From assembly GCA_040769125.1 (NCBI GenBank), contig JAXGLO010000001.1, positions 807,537-871,536 on the forward strand: 64,000 nucleotides of DNA, given 5' to 3'. Every line of letters starts with the position of its first letter. The stretch's first letter is position 1. Source of the stretch: Thermoleophilia bacterium. Lineage in GTDB: Bacteria > Actinomycetota > Thermoleophilia > UBA2241. Below, one piece after another: positions 12,341-64,000 of this stretch. The notes under the pieces were generated by a model. That model was given only the letters and a program-made list of their open reading frames with translations, ran no database searches and was not told where the DNA came from. Made by a program: the position numbers and the translations under genes.

Positions 12341-14773
12341 GTGAACCCCAAGCCCACAGGGCGCAGCGCCCGCCGTCCCACAGGGCCCAGCGCCTGCCGT
12401 CTGCCGTTGCTGGCCCTCTCCTGCTTTCTGCTGCTGCTCATCGCCGCCTCGCCGGCCGCCGCCGCCACCGCTGCCAGCTGGAGCTGGCAGAACCCACTGC
12501 CGCAAGGGAACAGCCTCTTCGCCGTCACCTGCGCCGACGCATCCCACGCCTTCGCGGTCGGAGATGCGGGCACGATCCTCGCGACCACCGACGGCGGCAC
12601 GACCTGGACGGAGCAGAGCTCGGGGACGGCGAAGGACCTCTTCGCCGTCACCTGCGCCGACGCATCCCACGCCTTCGCGGTCGGAGACGACGGCATCATC
12701 TTCGCGACCACCGACGGCGGCACGACCTGGACGCCGCAGAGCTCTGGGGCGACGAAGGACCTTAACGCCGTCACCTGCGCCGACGCATCCCACGCCTTCG
12801 CGGTCGGAGACGACGGCATCATCTTCGCGACCGTTAATGGCGGCACGACCTGGACGCCGCAGAACTCGGGAACGACGAATGACCTCTACGCCGTCACCTG
12901 CGCCGACGAGTATCACGCCTTCGCGGTCGGAGACTTCGGCACGATCCTCGCGACCACCGACGGCGGCACGACCTGGACGGAGCAGAGCTCGGGAGCGACG
13001 AAGGACCTCTATTCCGTCACCTGCGCCGACTCATCCCACGCCTTTGCGGTCGGAGACCACGGCACCATCCTTGCGACCACTAACGGCGGCACGACCTGGA
13101 TGCCGCAGAACTCGGGAACGACGGAGTACTTCCGCTCCGTCACCTGCGCCGACTCATCCTACGCCTTCGCGGTCGGAGACTTCGGCACGATCCTCGCGAC
13201 CACCGACGGCGGCGAGGCCTGGACGCCGCAGAGCTCGGGAGTGACGAATGACCTCTACGCCGTCACCTGCGCCGACTCATCCCACGCCTTCGCGGTCGGA
13301 GACTACGGCACCATCTCAGCGACCACCGACGGCGGCGAGGCCTGGACGCCGCAGAGCTCGGGAGCGACGAATGACCTCAACGCCGTCACCTGCGCCGACT
13401 CATCCCACGCCTTCGCGGTCGGACGTGGCGGCACAATTCTCGCGACCACCAACGGCGGTACGACCTGGACGCCGCAGAGTTCGGGAGTGACGAATGACCT
13501 CAACGCCGTCACCTGCGCCGACTCATCCCACGCCTTCGCGGTCGGACGTGGCGGCACAATTCTCGCGACCACCAACGGCGGTACGACCTGGACGCCGCAG
13601 AGTTCGGGAGTGACGAATGACCTCAACGCCGTCACCTGCGCCGACTCATCCCACGCCTTCGCGGTCGGACGTGGCGGCACAATTCTCGCGACCACCAACG
13701 GCGGTACGACCTGGACGCCGCAGAGTTCGGGAGTGACGAATGACCTCAACGCCGTCACCTGCGCCGACTCATCCCACGCCTTCGCGGTCGGACGTGGCGG
13801 CACAATTCTCGCGACCACCAACGGCGGTACGACCTGGACGCCGCAGAGTTCGGGAGTGACGAATGACCTCAACGCCGTCACCTGCGCCGACTCATCCCAC
13901 GCCTTCGCGGTCGGAGACTACGGCACCATCCTTGCGACCACTAACGGCGGCACGACCTGGACGCCGCAGAGCCTGGAGGGGGCAGGTCGCCTGACCGGCG
14001 TCGTCTGCGCCGACCCATCCCACGTCTTTGCAGTCGGATCTGATCGGCATGGCGCCGCCACGATCCTCGCGACCACCGACGGCGGCGAGACTTGGGAAGC
14101 GCAGAACTTGGGAACGGCGAATGACCTCGCTGCCGTCACCTGCGTCGACGCCTGGACTCTCTGGATGGTCGGAGACGGCGGCACCATCCTGGCGAAGGCG
14201 CCTCTGACCAGCGCCTCGACCTACCGCTTCGCCAGGACCCCCAAGGTCCGCTGGAGGAGAACCGACCAGACGGTCAAGTTCACTGCCCGGGGCGGCACCG
14301 CTCTCCGCAAGATCCACTACTCCCTGAACGGCGGTAAGACCTGGACGGCCGTCGACGGCGATACCGCCTCGGTGCGCATCAAGAGAGCCGGCTCCTACCG
14401 GGTGCAGTTCTACGCCAGCGACGAGCTCGGCAGAGAGGCGACCCACAAGCCCGGCTTCGTCAACATCGACAAGGACAAGCCGACGACCAGGGCGTACAAG
14501 GCGTCGGTCCGGCGCGGCAAGGTCGTCAGGCTACGCTACCGGGTGAGTGACGCCCTGCCCAGCTCAGGCTCCGCCCGCTGCGTCCTGCAGATCCGCAAGG
14601 GCAAGAAGACGGTGCGCTCGATCAGGCTCGGCACAAAGCGCGTCAACACCGCCCTTACCTACCGCTACCGCGCCCGCCTGGCCAAGGGCCGCTACACCTG
14701 GCGGGTGACCGCCACCGACCTGGCCGGCAACCGGGCCAGCAGGATCAGGGCGGCGAGCCTGCGGGTGAGGTGA
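12341..14773 (+). CDS. secreted BNR/Ycf48-like beta-propeller repeat protein, paralog 1 (about 14 blades plus conserved C-terminal domain)
   Basis: GTG start after AAAGGA RBS. Signal peptide ...LPLLALSCFLLLLIAASPAAAA. Repeated 41-aa blades of form W.Q..G.T..L..V.CAD..HAFAVGD.GTILATTDGGTTW (BNR motif T-x-D-G-G-x-T-W). Lys/Arg-rich C-terminal domain of about 190 aa shared with paralogs 2 and 3. Confidence 0.85.
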   Translation: MNPKPTGRSARRPTGPSACRLPLLALSCFLLLLIAASPAAAATAASWSWQNPLPQGNSLFAVTCADASHAFAVGDAGTILATTDGGTTWTEQSSGTAKDLFAVTCADASHAFAVGDDGIIFATTDGGTTWTPQSSGATKDLNAVTCADASHAFAVGDDGIIFATVNGGTTWTPQNSGTTNDLYAVTCADEYHAFAVGDFGTILATTDGGTTWTEQSSGATKDLYSVTCADSSHAFAVGDHGTILATTNGGTTWMPQNSGTTEYFRSVTCADSSYAFAVGDFGTILATTDGGEAWTPQSSGVTNDLYAVTCADSSHAFAVGDYGTISATTDGGEAWTPQSSGATNDLNAVTCADSSHAFAVGRGGTILATTNGGTTWTPQSSGVTNDLNAVTCADSSHAFAVGRGGTILATTNGGTTWTPQSSGVTNDLNAVTCADSSHAFAVGRGGTILATTNGGTTWTPQSSGVTNDLNAVTCADSSHAFAVGRGGTILATTNGGTTWTPQSSGVTNDLNAVTCADSSHAFAVGDYGTILATTNGGTTWTPQSLEGAGRLTGVVCADPSHVFAVGSDRHGAATILATTDGGETWEAQNLGTANDLAAVTCVDAWTLWMVGDGGTILAKAPLTSASTYRFARTPKVRWRRTDQTVKFTARGGTALRKIHYSLNGGKTWTAVDGDTASVRIKRAGSYRVQFYASDELGREATHKPGFVNIDKDKPTTRAYKASVRRGKVVRLRYRVSDALPSSGSARCVLQIRKGKKTVRSIRLGTKRVNTALTYRYRARLAKGRYTWRVTATDLAGNRASRIRAASLRVR
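13370..13900 (+). repeat. Intragenic perfect tandem repeat, 123-nt unit (one blade: TNDLNAVTCADSSHAFAVGRGGTILATTNGGTTWTPQSSGV), about 4.3 copies
   Basis: Identical 41-aa blocks x4 in the paralog-1 translation. The antisense ORF 13303..13881 shows the same 41-aa period. Confidence 0.8.
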
Positions 14774-14908: not shown

Positions 14909-15217
14909 GCGTGGCCGGCTCGCGCTTTCTCTTCCGCAGAGCGGCCCGCCGCCTCCCTTGCGTGTCGGCTCGTCGCTGCTCTCTACCGTCGGCAAGCCCG
15001 TCGCGTTGCCGGGCAAAGCAAACGCCGCCCCGGTGCGGGGCAGCCTATTTCTCTCTCCCTGCTCCCGCTAATAACACTCGACTCACGCCTGCGAGCCTTG
15101 CTCCAGAGCGAGCGGAGTGGTAATCATGAGCCGACACTACACTTCGTCGCCTGATCAACACTACGCCCCGTCGCCTGATCGAGGCGGGTACCTGTAACCG
15201 ACCAGAAAGGATTGCCG

Positions 15218-17683
15218 GTGAACCTCAAACCCATGGGGCTCAGCGCTCGCCATCTGCCGCTGCTGGCCCTCTCCTGCCTGTTGCTGCTGCTCATCGCTGC
15301 CGCGCCGGCGGCAGCCGCTGGCGCCGGCTGGAGGTGGCAGAACCCGCGGCCGCAGGGGAACACCCTCAACGGTGTCGCCGGCGCTGACGCAGAACACGCC
15401 TTCGCGGTCGGCATCTTCGGCACCATCCTCGCGACCACCGACGGCGGCCAGAACTGGACGGCACAGAACCCGGGGACGGATGAGCGCCTCAACGCCGTCG
15501 CCTGCACCGACGCAGAGCACGCCATCGCGGTGGGAGAGGGCGGCATGATCCTGGCGACCGGCAACGGGGGCACGAGCTGGGCGCCCCAGACCTCGGGGAC
15601 GACGAACCCCCTCTACGGCATTAGCTTCTCCAGCCCAAGCCACGGCTGGGCGGTCGGATTTGGCGGTACGATCCTCGCGACCACCGACGGCGGCGCGACC
15701 TGGAGGCCGCAGACTTCAGGGACGAAGAGTTCCCTCTATGGCGTCACCTGCACCAGTGCAAACCACGCTTGCGCGGTCGGCTACAACTTGACCAAGGATC
15801 GCGCCATCATCCTCGTGACCGACGACGGCGGCGCGACCTGGACGGTGAAGGACTTGGAGTGGAAGGGCCACCTCAACGGCGTCACCTTCTCCAGCCCAAG
15901 CCACGGCTGGGCGGTCGGATTCAATGAATGGCAGGATCGCGGCGCCATCCTCGTGACCGACGACGGCGGCGCGACCTGGACGGCGCAGGCCTCGGGGACG
16001 ACGATGGATCTCTCCGGCGTCACCTGCACCGACGCAAGCAACGTCTACGCGGTCGGATTCAGCCCAGACACAAATCGCGGCGTCATCCTCGTGACTACCG
16101 ACGGCGGCACGACCTGGGAGACGAAGGACTCGGGGAAGACGGATTCGCTCTTCGGCGTCACCCTCGCCGGCGAGTCCGGCGCCTTCGCGGTCGGGCGTGA
16201 CGGCACGATCTTCGCGACCACCGACAGCGGCGCGACCTGGGTGGAGCAGAGCTCGGGGACGACGGACAGCCTCGCCGACGTCGCCTGCACCGACGCCAAT
16301 AATGCCTTTGCGGTCGGATACGACTGGTTGGTGGATAGCAGCACCATCGTCGCCACCACGAACGGCGGCACAGAGTGGACGGAACAGGACCCGGGGACGA
16401 CGGGCCCCCTCAACGGCGTCGCCTGCGCCGGCGAATCCGGCGCCTTCGCGGTCGGCGACAACGGCACCGTCCTCGCGACCACCAACGGCGGTGATAACTG
16501 GGCGAAGCAGGACCCGGGGACGACGAAAGACCTCCTCGGTGTGGCCTTCTCCGACTCAGACCGCGGCTGGGCTGTCGGAAACGACGGCACCATCCGCGCA
16601 ACCGTTAACGGCGGCACGGAGTGGACGGAGCAGGACTCGGGGACGACGGCGCACCTCCCCGGCGTTGCCTGCGCCGACGATAATAATGCCTTCGCGGTGG
16701 GCGCTTCGGGCACCATCCTCGCGACCACGGACGGCGGCGCGACCTGGACGGAGCAGGACTCGGGGACGACGGCGAACCTCCTGGACGTCACGTGCGCCGA
16801 CGATAATAATGCCTTCGCGGTGGGCGCCTCGGGCACCATCCTCGCGACCACCAACGGCGGCGCGACCTGGACGGCGCAGACCTCGGGGACGGACGAGCCC
16901 CTCAACGCCGTTGACTGCGCCGACGCAACCCACGCCTTCGCGGTCGGAGAGGGCGGCACCATTCTCGCGACCAGCGACGGCGGCAAGAACTGGACGCAGC
17001 AGAGGTCGAGGACACCGTACGCCCTCTACGGCGTCGCCTGCGCCGACGCAACGCGCGCTTTCGCCGCCGGGGACAGTGGTGCCATCCTGGGGTTCACCGC
17101 TCCCGACACCCCCCTCACTAGCGCCTCGACTTACCGCTTCGCCAAGACCCCCAAGGTCGGCTGGAAGAGAACCAAGCAGACGGTCAAGTTCACCGCCCAG
17201 GGCGGCGAAGCTCCGTACAAGATCCACTACTCCTTGAACGGCGGCAGGACCTGGACGGTCGTCAACGGCGATACCGCCTCGGTGCACATCACGAAAGCCG
17301 GCTCCTACCGGGTGCAGTTCTTCGCCAGCGACGAAGTCGGCAATGAGGTGATCCACAAGCCCGGCTTCGTCAACATCGACACGGCCAAGCCGACGACCAG
17401 GGCGTACAAGGCGTCGGTCCGGCGCGGCAAGGTTGTCAGGCTGCGCTACCGGGTGAACGACGCCCTGCCCAGCTCAGGCTCCGCCCGCTGCGTCCTGCAG
17501 ATCCGCAAGGGCAAGAAGACGGTGCGCTCGATCAGGCTCGACAGAAAGCCCGTCAACACCGCGCTTACCTACCGCTTCCGCGCCCGCCTGGCCAAGGGCC
17601 GCTACACCTGGCGGGTGACCGCCACCGACCTGGCCGGCAACCGGGCCAGCAGGATCACGGCGGCGACCCTGCGGGTGAGGTGA
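15218..17683 (+). CDS. secreted BNR/Ycf48-like beta-propeller repeat protein, paralog 2
   Basis: Same architecture: GTG start in the conserved leader, signal peptide, about 15 divergent blades, conserved C-terminal domain. The track ORF starts at TTG 15212. Confidence 0.85.
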   Translation: MNLKPMGLSARHLPLLALSCLLLLLIAAAPAAAAGAGWRWQNPRPQGNTLNGVAGADAEHAFAVGIFGTILATTDGGQNWTAQNPGTDERLNAVACTDAEHAIAVGEGGMILATGNGGTSWAPQTSGTTNPLYGISFSSPSHGWAVGFGGTILATTDGGATWRPQTSGTKSSLYGVTCTSANHACAVGYNLTKDRAIILVTDDGGATWTVKDLEWKGHLNGVTFSSPSHGWAVGFNEWQDRGAILVTDDGGATWTAQASGTTMDLSGVTCTDASNVYAVGFSPDTNRGVILVTTDGGTTWETKDSGKTDSLFGVTLAGESGAFAVGRDGTIFATTDSGATWVEQSSGTTDSLADVACTDANNAFAVGYDWLVDSSTIVATTNGGTEWTEQDPGTTGPLNGVACAGESGAFAVGDNGTVLATTNGGDNWAKQDPGTTKDLLGVAFSDSDRGWAVGNDGTIRATVNGGTEWTEQDSGTTAHLPGVACADDNNAFAVGASGTILATTDGGATWTEQDSGTTANLLDVTCADDNNAFAVGASGTILATTNGGATWTAQTSGTDEPLNAVDCADATHAFAVGEGGTILATSDGGKNWTQQRSRTPYALYGVACADATRAFAAGDSGAILGFTAPDTPLTSASTYRFAKTPKVGWKRTKQTVKFTAQGGEAPYKIHYSLNGGRTWTVVNGDTASVHITKAGSYRVQFFASDEVGNEVIHKPGFVNIDTAKPTTRAYKASVRRGKVVRLRYRVNDALPSSGSARCVLQIRKGKKTVRSIRLDRKPVNTALTYRFRARLAKGRYTWRVTATDLAGNRASRITAATLRVR

Positions 17684-17805: not shown

Positions 17806-17915
17806 CTCCTTGCATGCCTTGCTCTAGAGCGCGCCGAGTGATAATCATGGGTCGATACTGCGTCTCGTCGCTCGATCGAGACGGGAGCATCTGCAACCGA
17901 CAGAAAGGACTGCCG

Positions 17916-20405
17916 GTGAACCTCAAGCCCACCGGGCGCAGCGCCCGCCGCTCCATGGGGCTCAGCGCTCGCCATCTGCCGCTGCTGGCCCTCTTCAGCC
18001 TTCTACTGCTGCTCATCGCAGCTGCGCCGGCCTCCGCCGCCGGCTGGAGCTGGCAGAACCCCCTGCTGCAGGGGAACAACCTCAATGGCGTCGCCTGCGC
18101 CGGCACATCTCACGCCATCGCGGTCGGCGACTACGGCACCATCCTTGCGACCATCGACGGCGGCCAGAACTGGATGCCACAGGCTTCGGGGACGACGAAG
18201 TATCTCACCGCCGTCGCCTGCGCCGGCACATCTCACGCCATCGCGGTCGGAGAGGGTGGCACCATCCTCGTGACCACGAACGGCGGCGCGACCTGGACGA
18301 AGCAGGGTTCAGGGACGACGAGGAATCTCACCGGCATCGCCTGTGTCGATGAACTTCGCGCCATCGCGGTTGGAGACTACGGCACCATTCTCGCCACCAT
18401 CGACGGCGGCAAGAGCTGGACAGACCAGAGTGCGGAGGACATGACGTCGGATCTCTTCGCCGTCACCTGTGCCGACGCACAGCACGCCTTCGCGGTCGGA
18501 TACGACGGCATCATCCTCGTGACCACCAATGGAGGCACGACTTGGGAGAAGCAGGAAGCGGGGGTGATGATGGAGCTCCACGGCATCGCCTGCGCCGATA
18601 CAAGCAACGCCTTCGCGGTCGGATACAATTGCACCACAGAGAAGAGCACCATCCTCGCGACTACCGACGGCGGCGGGAGTTGGGAAGAATACGGCTTGGG
18701 GACGAGGGCTCCCCTCTTTGGCGTCACCTGCGCCGACGAATCCCACGCCTTCGCGGTCGGAGACGACGGCACGATCTTCGCGACCGCCGACGGCGGCGAG
18801 AGCTGGGAAGAACAGACGTCGGGGACGGCGGATTTCCTCTTTGGCGTCACCTGCGCCGACGAATCCCACGCCTTCGCGGTCGGATATGGCGGCACCATCC
18901 TCGCGACCGCCGACGGCGGCACGCATTGGGCGGAATACAGCTCGGGGGTGACGGATACCCTCACCGACGTCACCTGCGCCGACGCAGAGCACGCCTTCGC
19001 GGTCGGATACGATGGCGCCATCGTCGCGACCACGGACGGCGGCACGACCTGGGCGCCGCAGGAGTCGGGGACGGCGGTGCGTCTCAATAGCATCGCCTGC
19101 GCCGACGCATTGCACGCCTTCGCGATCGGATATGACTGGGCCACGACGTTAAAGCCCACCATCCTCACGACCGCCGACGGCGGCACGACCTGGGAGCCGC
19201 AGGACTCGGGGACGGAGGAGTACCTCTCCGATGTCGCCTGCGTCAGCACATCCCATGCCTTCGCGGTCGGATGGGAAGGCACTATCCTCGTGACCACGAA
19301 CGGCGGCACGACCTGGGCGCCGCAGGACTCGGGGACGACGAAGAGCCTCTCCGACGTCGCCTGCGCCGACGCACAGAACGCCTACGCGGTCGGATGGGAC
19401 TACGACACGGATAGCAGCATTATCCTCGCGACCGCCAACGGCGGCCAGAGCTGGACAGAGCAGACCCCGGAGACGACGGCGCGTCTCACCGGCGTCGCCT
19501 GCGCCGACGCAACCCGCGCCTTCGTGGTCGGATACGATCCTGGCGCGAACAAGGGTGTCATCCTCGCGACCACCGATGGCGGCAAGAACTGGACGAAACA
19601 GGACTCGAGGACGACGGAGGGGCTCACCGGCGTCGCCTGCGCTGACGCATTGCACGCCTTCGTGGTCGGACACGACGGCACGATCCTGACGACCAGCGAC
19701 GGCGGCAAGAACTGGACCGCGCAAGCCTCGGGAACCAGAAACAAGCTCAACGCTGTCGCCTGCGCCGACGCAGCCCACGCTTTCGCAGTCGGAGACGGCG
19801 GCACCATTCTGGGGTTCACCGCCCCCGACACCCCCCTCACCAGCGCCTCGACTTATCGCTTCGCCAGGACCCCCAAGGTCGGCTGGAAGAGAACCAACCA
19901 GATAGTGAAGATCACGGCCCAGGGCGGCACCGCCCTCCGCAAGATCCACTACTCCCTGAACGGCGGCAGGACCTGGACGGCCGTCAACGGCGATACCGCC
20001 TCAGTGCGCATCACGAAAGCCGGCTCCTACCGGGTGCAGTTCTACGCCAGCGACGAGCTCGGCAGAGAGGCGACCCACAAGCCCGGCTTCGTCAACATCG
20101 ACAAGGACAAGCCGACGACCAGGGCGTACAAGGCGTCGGTCCGGCGCGGCAAGGTCGTCAGGCTACGCTACCGGGTGAGTGACGCCCTGCCCAGCTCAGG
20201 CTCCGCCCGCTGCGTCCTGCAGATCCGCAAGGGCAAGAAGACGGTGCGCTCGATCAGGCTCAGCAGAAAGCCCGTCAACACCGCGCTCACCTACCGCTAC
20301 CGCGCCCGCCTGGCCAAGGGCAGCTACACCTGGCGGGTGACCGCCACCGACCTGGCCGGCAACCGGGCCAGCAGGATCAGGGCGGCGACCTTGACTGTGA
20401 GGTGA
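17916..20405 (+). CDS. secreted BNR/Ycf48-like beta-propeller repeat protein, paralog 3
   Basis: GTG 17916 in the conserved leader (track ORF extended upstream to 17814). Signal peptide, about 16 blades. C-terminal domain about 95% nt-identical to paralog 1, with runs of more than 200 identical nt. Confidence 0.85.
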   Translation: MNLKPTGRSARRSMGLSARHLPLLALFSLLLLLIAAAPASAAGWSWQNPLLQGNNLNGVACAGTSHAIAVGDYGTILATIDGGQNWMPQASGTTKYLTAVACAGTSHAIAVGEGGTILVTTNGGATWTKQGSGTTRNLTGIACVDELRAIAVGDYGTILATIDGGKSWTDQSAEDMTSDLFAVTCADAQHAFAVGYDGIILVTTNGGTTWEKQEAGVMMELHGIACADTSNAFAVGYNCTTEKSTILATTDGGGSWEEYGLGTRAPLFGVTCADESHAFAVGDDGTIFATADGGESWEEQTSGTADFLFGVTCADESHAFAVGYGGTILATADGGTHWAEYSSGVTDTLTDVTCADAEHAFAVGYDGAIVATTDGGTTWAPQESGTAVRLNSIACADALHAFAIGYDWATTLKPTILTTADGGTTWEPQDSGTEEYLSDVACVSTSHAFAVGWEGTILVTTNGGTTWAPQDSGTTKSLSDVACADAQNAYAVGWDYDTDSSIILATANGGQSWTEQTPETTARLTGVACADATRAFVVGYDPGANKGVILATTDGGKNWTKQDSRTTEGLTGVACADALHAFVVGHDGTILTTSDGGKNWTAQASGTRNKLNAVACADAAHAFAVGDGGTILGFTAPDTPLTSASTYRFARTPKVGWKRTNQIVKITAQGGTALRKIHYSLNGGRTWTAVNGDTASVRITKAGSYRVQFYASDELGREATHKPGFVNIDKDKPTTRAYKASVRRGKVVRLRYRVSDALPSSGSARCVLQIRKGKKTVRSIRLSRKPVNTALTYRYRARLAKGSYTWRVTATDLAGNRASRIRAATLTVR

Positions 20406-20577: not shown

Positions 20578-20748
20578 CGCAGGCGGCGGCCCGCCGCTCT
20601 TCGTACTAACACTCCACTCACGTTTGCGAACTATGCGCCAAGGCAATCTGAAATGAATACGGAGTGATTTTTGATACTGGATCGATGATGCGCCTCGTCG
20701 CACGATCCAGACGGGGTGCATCTGCAACCGAGGGGGAAAGGACTGCCG

Positions 20749-23451
20749 GTGAACCCCAAATCCACATCCACAGGGTCCAATGCTCGCTATCCCACGGGGC
20801 CCAATGCCCGCCATCCCACAGGGCTCAGCGCCCGCCACTTGCTGCTGCTGCTGCTGCTGGTCCTCTCCTGCCTTCTCCTGCTGCTCGTCGCCGCCTCGCC
20901 CGCCGCCGCCATCGTCGCCGGCTGGAGCTGGCAGAATCCATTGCCGCAGGGGAATAGCCTCAACGCCGTCGCCTGCGCCGACAAATCCCGTGCCTTCGCG
21001 GTCGGAGATGACGGCACCATCCTCGCGACCGCCGACGGCGGCAAAAGCTGGACGCCGCAGATCTCGGGGACGACGGCGTACCTCACCGCCGTCGCCTGCG
21101 CCGACGAATCTCACGCTTTCGCGGTCGGATACGATAACGACACGTATGAGGGCCTCATCCTCGCGACCAGCAACGGCGGCCAGAGCTGGACGAGGCAGAC
21201 CTCGGGGACGACTCATTACCTCACCGCCGTCACTTGCGTCGACGAATCCCACGTCTTCGCAGTCGGATATGGCGGCACCATCCTCGCGACCAGCAACGGC
21301 GGCCAGAGCTGGACGAGGCAGACCTCGGGGACGATGGACTCCCTCTTCGCCGTCGCCTTCACCGACGCAAGCCACGGCTGGACGGTCGGCTCCTTCGGCA
21401 CCATCCTCGCGACCACCGACGGCGGCGCGAGCTGGACGGAGCAGACCTCGGGGACGATGAAATACCTCACCGCCGTCACCTGTGCCAACGCAACGCGCGC
21501 CTTCGCGGTCGGAGATGAGGGCGCGATCCTGGCGACCACCAACGGCGGCAAGAGCTGGAAGAAGCAGAGCGCGGGAACGACGAGCCCCCTGCGCGCCGTC
21601 ACCTGTGCCAACGCAACGCGCGCCTTCGCGGTCGGAGATGAGGGCACGATCCTGGCGACCACCAACGGCGGCCAGAGCTGGAAGAAGCAAGGCGCGGGAA
21701 CGACGAACTCCCTGCGCGCCGTCGCCTGCGCCGATGCATCTCGCGCCTTCGCGGTCGGATATGGCGGCACGATCCGCGCGACCACCAACGGTGGCAAGAG
21801 CTGGAAGGCGCAGAGTTCGGGGACGACAAGCTCGCTCTACGGTGTCGCCTGCGCCGATGCATCACGCGCCTTCGCGGTCGGAGCCAATGGCACGATCCTG
21901 GCGACCACCAACGGCGGCCAGAGCTGGAAGAAGCAGGGCGCGGGAACGACGAACTCCCTGCGCGCCGTCGCCTGCGCCGATGCATCTCGCGCCTTCGCGG
22001 TCGGATATGGCGGCACGATCCGCGCGACCACCAACGGTGGCAAGAGCTGGAAGGCGCAGAGTTCGGGGACGACAAGCTCGCTCTACGGTGTCGCCTGCGC
22101 CGATGCATCACGCGCCTTCGCGGTCGGAGCCAATGGCACGATCCTGGCGACCACCAACGGCGGCCAGAGCTGGAAGAAGCAGGGCGCGGGAACGACGAAC
22201 TCCCTGCGCGCCGTCGCCTGCGCCGATGCATCTCGCGCCTTCGCGGTCGGATATGGCGGCACGATCCGCGCGACCACCAACGGTGGCAAGAGCTGGAAGG
22301 CGCAGAGTTCGGGGACGACAAGCTCGCTCTACGGTGTCGCCTGCGCCGATGCATCACGCGCCTTCGCGGTCGGAGCCAATGGCACGATCCTGGCGACCAC
22401 CAACGGCGGCCAGAGCTGGAAGAAGCAGGGCGCGGGAACGACGAACTCCCTGCGCGCCGTCGCCTGCGCCGATGCATCTCGCGCCTTCGCGGTCGGATAT
22501 GGCGGCACGATCCGCGCGACCACCAACGGTGGCAAGAGCTGGAAGGCGCAGAGTTCGGGGACGACAAGCTCGCTCTACGGTGTCGCCTGCGCCGATGCAT
22601 CACGCGCCTTCGCGGTCGGAGCCAATGGCACGATCCTGGCGACCACCAACGGCGGCCAGAGCTGGAAGAAGCAGGGCGCGGGAACGACGAACTCCCTGCG
22701 CGCCGTCGCCTGCGCCGATGCATCTCGCGCCTTCGCGGTCGGATATGGCGGCACGATCCGCGCGACCACCAACGGTGGCAAGAGCTGGAAGGCGCAGAGC
22801 TCGGGGACGACGACCTGCCTCTACGGTGTCGCCTGCGCCGATGCATCCCACGCCTTCGCGGTCGGAGATGAGGGCGCGATCCTGGCGACCACCGACGGCG
22901 GCAAGAGCTGGAAGGCGCAGAGCTCGGGGACGACGCATGCCCTCAACGGCATCGCCTGCGTCGACAAATCCCACGCCTTCGCGGTCGGATACGATCGCGA
23001 CACGTATGAGGGCATCATCCTCGCAACCACCGACGGCGGCAAGAGTTGGACCGCGCAGAGCTCGGGGGTGTCGCAAACCCTCTACGGCATCGCCTGCGCC
23101 GACAAAACCCACGCTTTCGCGGTCGGTTATAAGGGCACCATCCTCGCGACCGCGGATGGCGGCAAGAGCTGGACGGCGAAGATCTCGGGGACGATGAACA
23201 CTCTCTACGCCGTCGCCTGCGCCGACGCATCTCACGCCTTCGCCGTCGGGCATGAGGGCACGATCCTGGCGACCACCAATGGCGGCGAGAGCTGGACGGA
23301 GGAGCACTACGCGGTGACGAATAACATCCTCACCGCCGCCACCCGCGCCGACGAATCCCACGCTTTCGCGGTCGGATACGGCGGCATGATCCTGGCGATG
23401 GCCGGCCCGGATGCTCTCACGAGCTCTCCTCGACCGGCAGCCTCGCCGTGA
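20749..23451 (+). CDS. secreted BNR/Ycf48-like beta-propeller repeat protein, paralog 4 (about 20 blades, C-terminal domain missing)
   Basis: GTG 20749 in the conserved leader (track ORF starts at 20716). Signal peptide preceded by a polymorphic-looking LLLLLL tract. Ends ...MILAMAGPDALTSSPRPAASP* without the conserved C-terminal domain. Confidence 0.8.
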   Translation: MNPKSTSTGSNARYPTGPNARHPTGLSARHLLLLLLLVLSCLLLLLVAASPAAAIVAGWSWQNPLPQGNSLNAVACADKSRAFAVGDDGTILATADGGKSWTPQISGTTAYLTAVACADESHAFAVGYDNDTYEGLILATSNGGQSWTRQTSGTTHYLTAVTCVDESHVFAVGYGGTILATSNGGQSWTRQTSGTMDSLFAVAFTDASHGWTVGSFGTILATTDGGASWTEQTSGTMKYLTAVTCANATRAFAVGDEGAILATTNGGKSWKKQSAGTTSPLRAVTCANATRAFAVGDEGTILATTNGGQSWKKQGAGTTNSLRAVACADASRAFAVGYGGTIRATTNGGKSWKAQSSGTTSSLYGVACADASRAFAVGANGTILATTNGGQSWKKQGAGTTNSLRAVACADASRAFAVGYGGTIRATTNGGKSWKAQSSGTTSSLYGVACADASRAFAVGANGTILATTNGGQSWKKQGAGTTNSLRAVACADASRAFAVGYGGTIRATTNGGKSWKAQSSGTTSSLYGVACADASRAFAVGANGTILATTNGGQSWKKQGAGTTNSLRAVACADASRAFAVGYGGTIRATTNGGKSWKAQSSGTTSSLYGVACADASRAFAVGANGTILATTNGGQSWKKQGAGTTNSLRAVACADASRAFAVGYGGTIRATTNGGKSWKAQSSGTTTCLYGVACADASHAFAVGDEGAILATTDGGKSWKAQSSGTTHALNGIACVDKSHAFAVGYDRDTYEGIILATTDGGKSWTAQSSGVSQTLYGIACADKTHAFAVGYKGTILATADGGKSWTAKISGTMNTLYAVACADASHAFAVGHEGTILATTNGGESWTEEHYAVTNNILTAATRADESHAFAVGYGGMILAMAGPDALTSSPRPAASP
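21650..22860 (+). repeat. Intragenic perfect tandem repeat, 246-nt unit (two blades, 82 aa), about 5 copies
   Basis: Four identical antisense ORFs (21837, 22083, 22329, 22575) spaced exactly 246 nt apart. The protein shows TNGGQSWKKQGAGTTNSLRAVACADASRAFAVGYGGTIRATTNGGKSWKAQSSGTTSSLYGVACADASRAFAVGANGTILAT x5. Confidence 0.85.
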
Positions 23452-40043: not shown

Positions 40044-41069
40044 CTACAGCACATTGAACAGCAGCAGCGCGGCGATCGCCAGCCCCACGCCGAGACGGTA
40101 GAAACCGAAGATCGCCATACTGTGGCGGTTGAGGTAGCCCACCATCCACTTGATCGCCAGCGCCGCCGAGATGAACGCCACGACGACACCGACGATCGGC
40201 GCCGCCACTCCCAGCGTGTCGACGATCACGCGGCCTTCGCGCACGGTCTCCACGAGCGTGGCTCCCGTCAGCGTGACAAGGCCGAGGAGGAAGCTGTACT
40301 CGACGGCCGCCCGCGTGCTGAGCCCCACCAGTCGCCCCCCCAGGATCGTCGCCAGGCTGCGGCTCACGCCGGGCCACATGGCGATACACTGGAGGAGCCC
40401 GATAACGAGCGCGCGGCGGACGGTAAGCTCCTCGAGCGGCGTGCCGTCGGCGGAGCTTCGGCCGTGCTTGTCGTCGGAGCGCGCTACCGCGAGGATCACG
40501 AGCCCGCCGGCCAGCCAGGCGGCGGCAATCGGCCACAGGGCGAAGAGGTAGTCCTTGAGGTACTGCTCGCCCAGGACGCCGATGATCACCGCCGGGACGA
40601 CCGAGGCGACGAGTGAGAGGCCCACTCTGAGGCCGTCGGGATCACGGCCAGCGATGCCACGAAGAATGCTCCAGATGCGGCTGGCGTAGAGCACGAGCAC
40701 GGCGAGGATGGCGCCGAACTGGATGACGATCGCGTAGGCGTCTGCCGCCTGTTTATCTCCCTCCGTGTCGGCGAGGCCGAGGGCGTGGGAGGTGAGGAGC
40801 AGGTGCCCCGTGGAACTCACCGGCAGGTACTCGGTGACGCCTTCGACCACGCCCAGCACGACGGCTTTGGCAAGAGAGAGACCGTTGCGGCTCTCGCCGG
40901 AGGGCGTCTGTTTGGCGGAGGGGGCTGGGGTGGGAGCCGCCGTTGGCCCGTCGCCTGCGGCGCCGGGGGATGCGGCTGCGGCGATCGCGGGAAGCGCGCC
41001 CGCCAGCGACAGGATGCCCAGCGTGAAGAGGACAGCGATCATCGAGGTGCGAGATCTGCCGCGGATCAT
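40044..41069 (-). CDS. uppP: undecaprenyl-diphosphate phosphatase (BacA/UppP) with about 60-aa N-terminal signal-peptide-like plus Pro/Ala-rich extension
   Basis: VLGVVEGVTEYLPVSSTGHLLL... and the rest of the UppP core, about 275 aa. The extension has no in-frame stop and looks like a genuine signal/TM segment. Confidence 0.75.
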   Translation of the reverse strand: MIRGRSRTSMIAVLFTLGILSLAGALPAIAAAASPGAAGDGPTAAPTPAPSAKQTPSGESRNGLSLAKAVVLGVVEGVTEYLPVSSTGHLLLTSHALGLADTEGDKQAADAYAIVIQFGAILAVLVLYASRIWSILRGIAGRDPDGLRVGLSLVASVVPAVIIGVLGEQYLKDYLFALWPIAAAWLAGGLVILAVARSDDKHGRSSADGTPLEELTVRRALVIGLLQCIAMWPGVSRSLATILGGRLVGLSTRAAVEYSFLLGLVTLTGATLVETVREGRVIVDTLGVAAPIVGVVVAFISAALAIKWMVGYLNRHSMAIFGFYRLGVGLAIAALLLFNVL

Positions 41070-41366
41070 CGGCAGACTCTATCGAACGGTGCACCCCGCG
41101 GCATCCCTCTCGCGATCGGCATGCCGCATCTGGGACGCTGTTTCCAGAGCCGGCGTCGGCATGTACTGCAGGAGCGGCCCGGATAGGTCTCATGGATAGA
41201 CTTTACGCCTATCCGTGCGCGTCCGGGGCTGCTGTAGCCTGAGTGCTCCACGCGAAGGGCGGGCTCGCCGGCGCGGCTGGGAGGCGTAGTCCGCCGAAAG
41301 GCGGTGGGCGAACGGAAGACGGGCTAAGGGTTTTGGCGGCATTTGCCGAAGCTCACGGGTAGTGCG

Positions 41367-43550
41367 ATGTACGTGAGTATGAGAAGACACACTCTTTGGA
41401 GGCGCCGCCGCGCCGCCATCGCCATTCTGGGCGCGGCGGCTCTTTTCGCTGCCTTGTGCGTGCTGTCTGGCGCGAGCCGGGCCGAGGCCCTCCAGGCGCG
41501 CGCTGGGTCGGTCAGCACGCGCACCCTGACAGTGGCCGAGCGGCTCCCGATCGACTCCGCTGCCGCGGCGTCTGGAGCGCAGCGCCTCGCGCGCTCTGCT
41601 TCTGCAGCGGTGACGCTTGATGCCGGCGCCGAGTTCACCATGGTCGGTGTGACCTGTGAGCCGCCGGCTGCGGAGGGAGCCGTCACCATCCTCATCCGCA
41701 CCAGCCTCGACGGCAGCTCCTGGGGCAGCTGGTACGAGGGCCCGCTCGAGGTCGTCGCCGATCGCGATGGCGTGCCGCAGGCCTATATGGAGGCCATGTG
41801 GACCGGCGCCGCACGGTACGTTCAGGTGCGTGCCAGCGCTCCTTCTGCACGCGCCCCCCTCGCGTTGCGTGGGGTGCGCCTGGTCGCCCTCGATACAGAC
41901 TGTTCCGGCTTGTCCGCCGCGCGCGCGTCGGGCGCGGCCGGCGAGCATGTGGCCGGCGTTCCGGTCGGGTTGTCCGGCGTCCCGCCGGCGAGGGCCGAGG
42001 TCGCCCGGCCGGCGCTGGTCAGCCGGGCCGGCTGGGGCGCGAACGAGTCGCTGCGGAGCGGCACCCCTGCGTTCGCCGCGGTCAAGATGGCCTTCGTGCA
42101 CCACACCGCTGGCGGCAATACGTACACGGCGGCCGACGCGCCCGGCATCGTGCGCGGTATCTACGCTTATCACACCACCAGCCTCGGCTGGAGCGACATC
42201 GGCTACAACTTCCTCATCGATCGCTTCGGGACGATCTACGAAGGTCGGTACGGCGGTGTCGCTCGGGGGGTGGTCGGCGCCCAGGTCTACGGCTTCAATA
42301 CCGGCAGCACCGGCGTCTCCATGATCGGCACGTACACGCAGGATGCGCCGGCCGCTGCGGCTATGACCGCGCTTGAGCGGCTTCTGGCCTGGAAACTCGG
42401 GCTGAGCGGCCTCAACCCCACCGGCACCGCGAGCATGAAGTACGGTGGCCTTGTAGACGACAAGTACAAGGTCGGCCAGACGGTGAGCCTGCCGGTGATC
42501 GCGGGGCACCGCGACGCCAACTTCACCGAGTGCCCCGGGCTGGCGCTCTATAATCGGCTTCCGGCGGTGCGTCGGGGAGTCGCGGCACTCCTCGACGACG
42601 GCGCTATTACCGAGCCCAAACCCTGGAAGGTCACCCTCAAGGCGCCGGCGACGCTCGTCGCCTCCGGCTCCACGGTCGCCTTCAAGGGCACGGTCAAGAG
42701 CACGAGCACCGGCCTGCCCGGCAAAGGCACCGTGATCCTGCAGCGTCGGCCGGCCGCCGGCGGCGCCTGGACCAACCTGCGCAGTCGCACCCTCACGAGC
42801 AGCGGCGCCTACGCCGTGTCGCTGCGGGTGAGCCGTGTGGCCGACTGGCAGTTCCGCATGCGCATGCCGGCCGACGCCCTCAACCTGGCCGGCTGTAGCG
42901 CGGTTGTGGGCTTGCGCGTCATCGAGCCCAAACCCTGGAAGGTCACCCTCAAGGCGCCGGCGACGCTCGTCGCCTCCGGCTCCACGGTCGCCTTCAAGGG
43001 CACGGTCAAGAGCACGAGCACCGGCCTGCCCGGCAAAGGCACCGTGATCCTGCAGCGTCGGCCGGCCGCCGGCGGCGCCTGGACCAACCTGCGCAGTCGC
43101 ACCCTCACGAGCAGCGGCGCCTACGCCGTATCGCTGCGGGTGAGCCGTGTGGCCGACTGGCAGTTCCGCATGCGCATGCCGGCCGACGCCCTCAACCTGG
43201 CCGGCTGTAGCGCGGTTGTGGGCTTGCGCGTCATCGAGCCCAAACCCTGGAAGGTCACCCTCAAGGCGCCGGCGACGCTCGTCGCCTCCGGCTCCACGGT
43301 CGCCTTCAAGGGCACGGTCAAGAGCACGAGCACCGGCCTGCCCGGTAAAGGCACCGTGATCCTGCAGCGTCGGCCGGCCGCCGGCGGCGCCTGGACCAAC
43401 CTGCGCAGTCGCACCCTCACGAGCAGCGGCGCCTACGCCGTATCGCTGCGGGTGAGCCGTGTGGCCGACTGGCAGTTCCGCATGCGCATGCCGGCCGACG
43501 CCCTCAACCTGGCCGGCTGTAGCGCGGTGAGGACGCTCACCGTACGATAG
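41367..43550 (+). CDS. secreted N-acetylmuramoyl-L-alanine amidase (PGRP/Amidase_2 domain) with three C-terminal 104-aa repeats
   Basis: Signal peptide MRRHTLWRRRRAAIAILGAAALFAAL. Amidase_2 core MAFVHHTAGGNTY...GWSDIGYNFLIDRFGTIYEGR. Then IEPKPWKVTLKAPATLVASGSTVAFKGTVKST... x3. Confidence 0.8.
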   Translation: MYVSMRRHTLWRRRRAAIAILGAAALFAALCVLSGASRAEALQARAGSVSTRTLTVAERLPIDSAAAASGAQRLARSASAAVTLDAGAEFTMVGVTCEPPAAEGAVTILIRTSLDGSSWGSWYEGPLEVVADRDGVPQAYMEAMWTGAARYVQVRASAPSARAPLALRGVRLVALDTDCSGLSAARASGAAGEHVAGVPVGLSGVPPARAEVARPALVSRAGWGANESLRSGTPAFAAVKMAFVHHTAGGNTYTAADAPGIVRGIYAYHTTSLGWSDIGYNFLIDRFGTIYEGRYGGVARGVVGAQVYGFNTGSTGVSMIGTYTQDAPAAAAMTALERLLAWKLGLSGLNPTGTASMKYGGLVDDKYKVGQTVSLPVIAGHRDANFTECPGLALYNRLPAVRRGVAALLDDGAITEPKPWKVTLKAPATLVASGSTVAFKGTVKSTSTGLPGKGTVILQRRPAAGGAWTNLRSRTLTSSGAYAVSLRVSRVADWQFRMRMPADALNLAGCSAVVGLRVIEPKPWKVTLKAPATLVASGSTVAFKGTVKSTSTGLPGKGTVILQRRPAAGGAWTNLRSRTLTSSGAYAVSLRVSRVADWQFRMRMPADALNLAGCSAVVGLRVIEPKPWKVTLKAPATLVASGSTVAFKGTVKSTSTGLPGKGTVILQRRPAAGGAWTNLRSRTLTSSGAYAVSLRVSRVADWQFRMRMPADALNLAGCSAVRTLTVR
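42609..43520 (+). repeat. Intragenic perfect tandem repeat, 312-nt unit (104 aa, Ig-like-looking module), 3 copies
   Basis: Repeat starts at 42609, 42921 and 43233. Antisense ORFs 42548, 42809 and 43121 are near-identical at 312-nt spacing. Confidence 0.85.
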
Positions 43551-43658
43551 ACTGCCTCGTTCATCGCTTCCGGGGAGCTGTCATACTGTGCGGGCAGGGT
43601 GTCGCCCGCCGGTGCAAAGGCGGTGCGCCGCCGACCATACGTGCCTCTTGGAGTCCAT

Positions 43659-43928
43659 ATGAGCAGCATCGCGCGCCTGATCTACTTCGCTCTGTCGATC
43701 TACATCTGGATGATCGTCATCCGGGTCGCGATCTCGTGGTTCCGTCCGCGGCCCGGCACCGTGCTGCACCGCGTCTACCGTAGCTTGTCCGATGTGACGG
43801 AGCCTTACATCGGCCTCTTCCGGCGCCTGTTGCGGGGGACTCGCATCGAAGGTTCGGGCATCGACTTCAGCCCCGCCCTGGCGGTGATCGCCCTATTTAT
43901 CGCCATGCGGATCGTCGCGCGTTATTAG
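43659..43928 (+). CDS. yggT: YggT-family small membrane protein
   Basis: MSSIARLIYFALSIYIWMIVIRVAISWF...: 89 aa, two TM helices, YGGT motif region. Confidence 0.65.
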   Translation: MSSIARLIYFALSIYIWMIVIRVAISWFRPRPGTVLHRVYRSLSDVTEPYIGLFRRLLRGTRIEGSGIDFSPALAVIALFIAMRIVARY

Positions 43929-63427: not shown

Positions 63428-64000
63428 GTGGATCTGCGTGCGTTCATCAGCCTGCTCGAGCGCGAGGGCGAGCTCGTGCGCGTACGCCCGGAGGTCGATC
63501 CGTATCTCGAGATGGCGGAGATCTGCGACCGCGCCAGCAAGGCCCACGGTCCGGCGCTGCTGTTTGAGAGGCCGCTGAGGCCGGCGGGCGCAGCCGGCCC
63601 GGCTATGCCGGTGGTCATGAACCAGTTCGGCTCCTTCCGGCGTCTCGAGCTCGCGCTGGGCGCGCCTCTCGAGGAGTTCGCCGCCCGCATCGCCGGACTG
63701 GTCGATCTCCAGGTTCCTCACGGCCTGCTCGGGAAGGTCAAGGCGCTCGGCCAGCTCAAGGAGCTCGCCTCGTACTCGCCGCGGGTCGTCAACAAGGCGG
63801 CTTTCCAGGAGGTCGTCGTCGATCCGCCGGATCTCACGCGCCTGCCCGTGCTCACGACCTGGCCGGGCGATGGCGGCCCCTTCATCACGCTGCCTGTCGT
63901 GGTCACCAAGGATCGGCAGGGTCGTCGCAACGCCGGCATGTACCGGCTGCAGGTCTTCGACGGCGCCACGACGGGCATGCACTGGCATGTTCACCACGAC
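63428..64000 (+). CDS. UbiD-family (prFMN-dependent) decarboxylase, N-terminal part, continues beyond window
   Basis: VDLRAFISLLEREGELVRVRPEVDPYLEMAEI...GPALLFE...GGPFITLPVVVTKD: typical UbiD N-terminus. GTG 63428 after AAGGAGG. Confidence 0.8.
   Translation, partial: MDLRAFISLLEREGELVRVRPEVDPYLEMAEICDRASKAHGPALLFERPLRPAGAAGPAMPVVMNQFGSFRRLELALGAPLEEFAARIAGLVDLQVPHGLLGKVKALGQLKELASYSPRVVNKAAFQEVVVDPPDLTRLPVLTTWPGDGGPFITLPVVVTKDRQGRRNAGMYRLQVFDGATTGMHWHVHHD

Follow-up and report, generated by a model that had tools for sequence, protein, structure and literature searches.

Repeated wall-binding modules occur in modular autolysins, e.g., AtlA from Enterococcus faecalis with six LysM domains, Atl from Staphylococcus aureus with its R-repeats, and pneumococcal LytA with its choline-binding repeats, and the copy number of such modules is thought to set both the binding avidity and the localisation of the enzyme. 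The protein discussed here is a secreted amidase encoded in a 64,000-nucleotide stretch of DNA from a Thermoleophilia bacterium; this whole stretch is referred to as the window, and all coordinates are window positions unless another locus is named. The window protein resembles the modular autolysins in being a peptidoglycan hydrolase fused to several C-terminal accessory modules. However, its three nearly identical modules correspond to immunoglobulin-like (Ig-like) β-sandwiches and belong neither to the LysM, nor to the SH3b/GW, nor to the choline-binding type, and their binding to the wall is a presumed property.

With respect to the enzyme itself, the closest described system is Rv3811, the ami3 product, an amidase_2 enzyme (PMC3987819). 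The amidases of the Ami3/Rv3811 type appear to share with the window protein an N-terminal Rv3811_N region followed by an Amidase_2 domain, a likeness that is read from precomputed Pfam assignments, and the window protein differs from them by its three added C-terminal modules. Core homologues reach the Frankiales, Nocardioides, the Mycobacteriales and other groups among the best-matching loci found by tblastn outside the Thermoleophilia-like metagenome-assembled genomes (MAGs); most of these matches stop near query residue 400-490, before the repeats, and a few weaker ones extend further. With respect to the repeats, the closest relatives are the so-called Periscope proteins (SasG, Rib, Sgo_0707; Whelan et al. 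2021), which possess tandem arrays of mostly E-set Ig-like domains and for which intragenic recombination has been proposed as the driver (PMC8201768). The window array likewise consists of folded E-set Ig-like repeats with a very high identity at the DNA level and short proline-containing linkers, in numbers that differ between relatives. In contrast, the Periscope proteins are adhesins anchored to the wall or the membrane, with the array as a stalk that separates the anchor from a ligand-binding domain at the N-terminus (PMC8201768), whereas the window array constitutes the free C-terminal end of an enzyme devoid of any anchor motif, so that the anchor-stalk-head layout does not apply, and the variation in length observed here is that between relatives.

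The array represents a real and fairly ordinary case of an old array of domains recently homogenised by recombination within the gene. Taking together the architecture, the homogenisation and the role in retention or reach, it is rather probable that the protein is an amidase with an old multi-copy array, recently homogenised, the cationic modules of which serve for retention at the envelope and/or for reach. At the DNA level, Tandem Repeats Finder delimits a tandem array at 42611..43528 with a period of 312 nucleotides (nt), 2.9 copies, 99% matches and no indels, and a base-by-base scan at period 312 gives a single identity tract over the same positions, i.e., 918 nt or 2.94 copies with two mismatches, a self-identity of 99.7% that is far beyond chance. 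Both mismatches are synonymous third-position transitions, each private to one outer copy: position 42818 is a G in copy 1 vs an A at 43130 and 43442 (GTG/GTA, Val), and position 43346 is a T in copy 3 vs a C at 42722 and 43034 (GGC/GGT, Gly). Copies 1 (42609..42920) and 2 (42921..43232) comprise 104 amino acids (aa) with a net charge of +12, and copy 3 (43233..43547) comprises 105 aa with a net charge of +13, all on the plus strand; the number of three is that of the assembly. The first-pass annotation had described three nucleotide-identical repeats, of which the 312-nt period and the three units stand, whereas the identity amounts to 99.7% instead of 100% and the tract to 2.94 instead of 3.00 copies.

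The end of the tract is informative with respect to its history. Copy 3 matches the other copies only as far as 43528, and its final 18 nt encode ..AV-RTLTVR* where ..AV-VGLRVI occurs between the copies, with about 7 of the 18 bases shared. The 18-nt inter-copy segment GTTGTGGGCTTGCGCGTCAT, coding for the last strand VVGLRV plus I, is located on the plus strand at 42905..42922, repeats at 43217-43234 and is replaced by diverged sequence at 43529-43547, both ends displaying one β-strand pattern in clearly diverged DNA. This inter-copy segment, taken with the diverged 3' end of copy 3, indicates that at least two copies existed before homogenisation.

The relatives of the protein lead to a similar view. 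All the close homologues come from MAGs of Thermoleophilia or other Actinomycetota, a large share of which are long-read bins of the Microflora Danica. In a set of 125 relatives, 21 proteins carry one C-terminal copy of the module, 27 carry two, 14 three and 2 five copies, and the unit-to-unit identity inside a single protein ranges from 38% to 100%. In most of them the copies have diverged to 38-70% identity and have kept their positional orthology, as illustrated by the two-copy proteins, where 45 of the 54 units find their nearest counterpart at the corresponding position of another protein. It follows that the array is old. Three copies with 81-92% identity occur in the syntenic orthologue P0006, and the ..xRxLxVR* ending of copy 3 resembles that of the last units of the orthologues. 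The non-integer tract, the old terminal strand and this shared ending all indicate that two or more units were already in place before the array underwent a recent homogenisation or re-expansion, and the near-identity of the modules most probably reflects a very recent homogenisation of an ancestrally multi-copy array. The recent amplification claimed by the first-pass annotation stands as far as the near-identity is recent, but has to be read as homogenisation rather than as de novo triplication since at least two copies pre-existed.

Near-identical arrays of differing period arose independently in at least eight other lineages. In addition to the window array (period 312 nt, 2.94 copies, 99.7%), they include those of P0002 (locus L001; 309 nt, 4.97 copies, 100%), P0003 (locus L002; 306 nt, 4.83 copies, 100%) and P0004 (locus L003; 309 nt, 2.96 copies, 99%); the tract of P0006 (locus L004; 315 nt, 2.38 copies) is partial, i.e., partly homogenised. 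Units 95-100% identical also occur in P0126, which contains five of them, and in P0127, P0128, P0133 and P0014. Two hints suggest an ongoing turnover: P0122 has one copy vs three in its cluster-mate P0004 (at least 90% identity), and only 2 of the 1186 residues distinguish P0004 from P0124, one of these differences, D673A, being located in copy 3, where the A corresponds to the copy-2 allele, a pattern that looks like gene conversion. Homologous recombination between the 312-bp direct repeats, by unequal crossing-over and/or gene conversion, is the likely mechanism, resulting in a concerted evolution with copy-number turnover that recurs independently across the amidase family.

Some genes of the family display a particular organization. 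In P0003 (L002 3001-6081), P0004 (L003 3001-6561) and P0126, the amidase and the Ig-like array are fused to another wall hydrolase domain, NlpC/P60 or SpoIID, and such fusions are predicted to be bifunctional enzymes in which the homogenised array serves as a connector. A fragment of an rve-type transposase overlaps the 3' end of the P0003 gene. At locus L005 (2064-5013), an amidase-SpoIID gene is frameshifted into two called genes, and other cluster members (P0121, P0123) begin inside the repeat. Such splits and starts within the repeat are typical of long-read consensus errors or contig breaks, and the copy numbers recorded in databases for the amidase family should therefore be treated with care.

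A single module yields a confident one-domain structure model that corresponds to an Ig-like (E-set) β-sandwich, and fold searches with the unit return exclusively generic Ig, MG and Fn3 domains. The Ig-like nature proposed in the first-pass annotation is borne out by this Big_3_5-related sandwich; the SH3b and PKD folds, considered at the same time, found no counterpart. Neither a Pfam or NCBIfam match nor a fold of the SH3b, LysM or choline-binding type was found for the unit, and a PDB sequence search gave no significant match (best E 0.07); SH3b, PKD or any other specific wall-binding fold was rejected on account of these purely generic matches. The best Pfam match is Big_3_5 (PF16640, bacterial Ig-like domain group 3), which scores below the gathering cut-off of 35.5 bits, with 25.2 bits when the complete protein is used and 17.6 bits for an isolated unit. 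A search of 1.84 billion cluster representatives with the unit profile gave 1347 matches at E<=1e-3 and 33 at E<=1e-30, the more distant ones being proteins with above-threshold Big_3_5 arrays. Through this transitive link to Big_3_5, with which it has the fold class in common, the module appears as a small and divergent subfamily of related Ig-like domains, its units being characterized by the motif G.VT.Q[KR]R....G.W..WR...L...G.Y. A homology of the repeat with the N-terminal Rv3811_N region, suggested by an iterative hidden Markov model (HMM) that matched this region, was rejected: an HMM built from the repeat only gave just 12-17 bits, the hhalign probability was 6-28%, and the folds differ (CBM32-like jelly roll vs Ig-like sandwich).

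The other distinctive feature of the module is its positive charge. Each unit has a net charge of +12 with a pI of 11.7, which amounts to +37 for the whole array, and the median charge of the units across the family is +5. Of the 38 arrays placed at the C-terminus, 35 end in a unit that is more basic than those preceding it, with a mean of +11.2 vs +4.4 (Wilcoxon p 2e-7, with proteins treated as independent of phylogeny). In the global profile search, the module very often lies no more than about 10 residues from the C-terminus in otherwise unrelated secreted enzymes, including a Peptidase_C1 with a lectin-like domain, a subtilase (S8), an M14 carboxypeptidase and a BNR_4 protein; it also accompanies SpoIID and is found at the N-terminus of a β-helix protein. 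In P0144 the module occurs alongside multihaem cytochrome c7/c3 domains, and is accordingly not limited to hydrolases. The cationic modules may keep the enzyme at the anionic envelope through non-covalent contacts and/or determine how far it reaches; their copy number would then modulate avidity or reach, and the identical DNA, being prone to recombination, would allow this number to shift quickly.

As predicted from its translation, the product is a secreted modular N-acetylmuramoyl-L-alanine amidase of the actinobacterial Ami3/Rv3811 type, in which a signal peptide, a jelly roll and an Amidase_2 domain precede the three Ig-like modules. Its complete coding sequence (41367..43550, plus strand) is taken from the list of open reading frames (ORFs), encodes 727 aa plus the stop and starts with MYVSM, and translation could also start from an in-frame TTG at 41343 instead of the ATG at 41367. 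The repeats are in frame with the amidase, as the first-pass annotation had it, within this single ORF running from 41343 (TTG) or 41367 (ATG) to 43550. The putative signal peptide (aa 1-41; 41367..41489, plus strand), as read from the translation, consists of an arginine-rich n-region (RRHTLWRRRR) and an 18-residue hydrophobic core AAIAILGAAALFAALCVL, followed by SRAEA/LQ; the cleavage site and the choice between Sec and Tat routing are tentatively assigned by inspection. The N-terminal β-jelly roll (aa 76-185; 41592..41921, plus strand) corresponds, from fold comparison, to a CBM32/discoidin-like fold and probably to the Rv3811_N region of Pfam. PF27503 (Rv3811_N) appears in the precomputed Pfam listing for P0001, is marked as weak for the relatives and gave no match in the local Pfam scan; at locus L005, the PF27503 match falls on the separately called N-terminal fragment. 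This CBM32-like domain is a candidate for the glycan-recognition part of the enzyme.

The catalytic domain of the Amidase_2/PGRP type (aa 238-391; 42078..42539, plus strand) matches Pfam PF01510 with 57 bits vs a cut-off of 26 (E 3.3e-15, profile positions 4-130 of 131), and contains the motifs HHT, GYNF and GHRD..TECPG. In the PDB sequence search, the nearest solved structures are animal PGRPs (E 7e-21): VHHTAG aligns with IHHSAG, GYNFL with GYNFL, and GHRDANFTECPG with GHRDVGSTACPG of the PGRP 4z8i, and a Cys residue is present where the non-catalytic PGRPs carry a Ser. In T7 lysozyme and the catalytic PGRPs, the Zn-binding and catalytic residues are His, Tyr, His, Thr/Lys and Cys, and the Zn-binding residues of the present domain are intact. 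The Pfam match, the conserved catalytic motifs and the putative signal peptide, recognized by inspection, uphold the earlier identification of a secreted Amidase_2 enzyme. Its polypeptide chain ends with ..CSAVRTLTVR*, three residues past the last strand, and neither an LPXTG motif nor a C-terminal hydrophobic or transmembrane segment occurs in the 727-aa protein. The NCBIfam matches of the protein (fimbrial proteins, PurK and others) all lie far below the cut-offs and were disregarded.

Several points weigh against the homogenised array with a role in retention. The count of three copies relies on one assembly, and the search for another assembly of the species brought none: a look-up of the exact protein yielded no contig, the metagenome scan gave nothing above 41% identity and the scan of GTDB representatives a best match of 53% identity. 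The flanking genes of P0004 and P0122 differ, so that their disparity in copy number may oppose paralogous loci. The Ig-like fold is generic and lacks a diagnostic ligand site, and some homogenised arrays are nearly neutral, the units of P0004 carrying a charge of +1 to +2. The statistic relating charge to position takes no account of phylogenetic non-independence, and the CBM32-like domain at the N-terminus could be the real wall-targeting module. Finally, the modules of P0003 and P0004 lie between two catalytic domains, a location which suits a spacer as well as an anchor.

The spacer is the main rival: the Ig-like modules would be passive and rod-forming, as in a Periscope-type stalk of variable length, and their copy number would set the reach of the amidase, or of a second catalytic domain in some relatives, in the absence of any binding to the wall. 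This explanation is possible, although on the unlikely side. E-set Ig-like repeats, short proline-containing linkers (V-I-E-P-K-P-W; IEPKP), a very high DNA identity and one to five copies are all hallmarks of the Periscope proteins (PMC8201768), and the array of P0003 and P0004 does separate the amidase from NlpC/P60 or SpoIID. On the other hand, with no anchor at either end of the array, be it an LPXTG motif or a C-terminal transmembrane segment, the array of the window protein does not project the catalytic domain from a fixed point, unless the signal sequence is an uncleaved anchor. Moreover, neither the strong position-dependent positive charge nor the preference for the extreme C-terminus of unrelated enzymes is expected of a passive spacer.

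The two other explanations concern the origin of the copies and both seem very unlikely. According to the first, a single ancestral domain would have been expanded de novo into three copies in the very recent past, through either replication slippage or tandem duplication. An identity of 99.7% in DNA and a unit that is an exact multiple of 3 are consistent with such an event, but a tract of 2.94 rather than 3.00 copies is not, and the ancient divergence of the 18-nt inter-copy segment from the 3' end of copy 3, which encodes the same strand, requires at least two pre-existing copies. P0006 and most relatives possess two or three diverged copies in positional orthology. According to the second, the copy number or even the whole triplication would be an assembly artefact due to a collapsed, expanded or looped repeat. 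Near-identical 312-bp repeats are indeed difficult for short-read assemblers, and the copy number of this genome comes from a single assembly. However, an assembler loop is not expected to leave a private synonymous transition in each outer copy, the exact 727-aa product, recorded once, at NCBI, is located on a contig of 1.84 Mb, a size suggestive of long reads in the case of an uncultured lineage, and like arrays occur in at least five related genes from independent assemblies, including MAGs of the Microflora Danica with Flye-style contig_N names obtained from long reads. A phage origin as an endolysin was rejected, since the unit found no counterpart by tblastn among 50,697 phage records and the neighbours of the gene are housekeeping genes.

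These neighbours comprise BacA, YggT, acetate kinase and DAHP synthase. The divergent neighbour of the amidase encodes the undecaprenyl-diphosphate phosphatase BacA/UppP (40044..41069, minus strand; Pfam BacA, E 1.5e-71), which provides a cell-wall context only and takes no part in the repeat, and the 3' neighbour encodes a membrane protein of the YggT family (43599..43928, plus strand; Pfam YGGT, E 3.4e-17). The order amidase-YggT is kept in the 53%-identical orthologue P0006, with YggT at L004 5413-5682, and this conserved order, together with BacA/UppP, suggests a stable neighbourhood devoted to the cell envelope or to division. Opposite the repeat, three minus-strand ORFs of 82-99 aa with identical N-terminal sequences (42548-42796, 42809-43108 and 43121-43420) are high-GC artefacts and not genes. 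At the end of the window, a minus-strand frame running off the edge (63721-63990) weakly matches the repeat profile (E 3e-5, HMM positions 17-66); this match was dropped owing to the low complexity of the translation, which is probably antisense to a plus-strand gene with an 18-nt repeat at 63727-63767. Elsewhere in the window, four consecutive plus-strand ORFs of 810-911 aa (12341-14773, 15212-17683, 17814-20405 and 20716-23451) are built of 123-nt (41-aa) repeats resembling BNR/Ycf48 propeller blades (Pfam PSII_BNR, Sortilin-Vps10 and BNR), with a DNA identity of 68-90%. These paralogous genes, which carry repeat arrays of their own, form a cluster that is presumably the other locus of repeat amplification alluded to in the first-pass annotation, and it is clearly more ancient and more divergent than the array of the amidase.

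Taken together, a recurrent concerted evolution at the scale of the family and a possible lineage-specific domain for envelope retention make up a modestly interesting pattern. The case enlarges the set of envelope proteins with concertedly evolving arrays that change in copy number by a peptidoglycan hydrolase from a class of actinobacteria that has hardly been studied, and it defines a small Ig-like subfamily which is missed by the current Pfam thresholds and occurs at the C-termini of many secreted enzymes of the lineage. It also flags the amidase gene as one whose length is likely to be mis-assembled in short-read MAGs. If the module is an envelope anchor, its recognition would help the annotation of Thermoleophilia exoproteomes, and the dosage of the autolysin at the wall would be tunable by intragenic recombination. 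A bolder proposal, tentative and rather doubtful, is that the cationic Ig-like unit is an unrecognised, lineage-restricted C-terminal domain for envelope retention or sorting, common to many Thermoleophilia exoproteins (amidases, SpoIID, NlpC/P60, cysteine, serine and metallo-proteases, and BNR proteins), the copy number of which has been kept recombination-prone in the wall hydrolases. If this were true, populations would be able to tune rapidly how tightly and over what range their autolysins act, and the array would represent an enzyme-borne counterpart of the Periscope principle.

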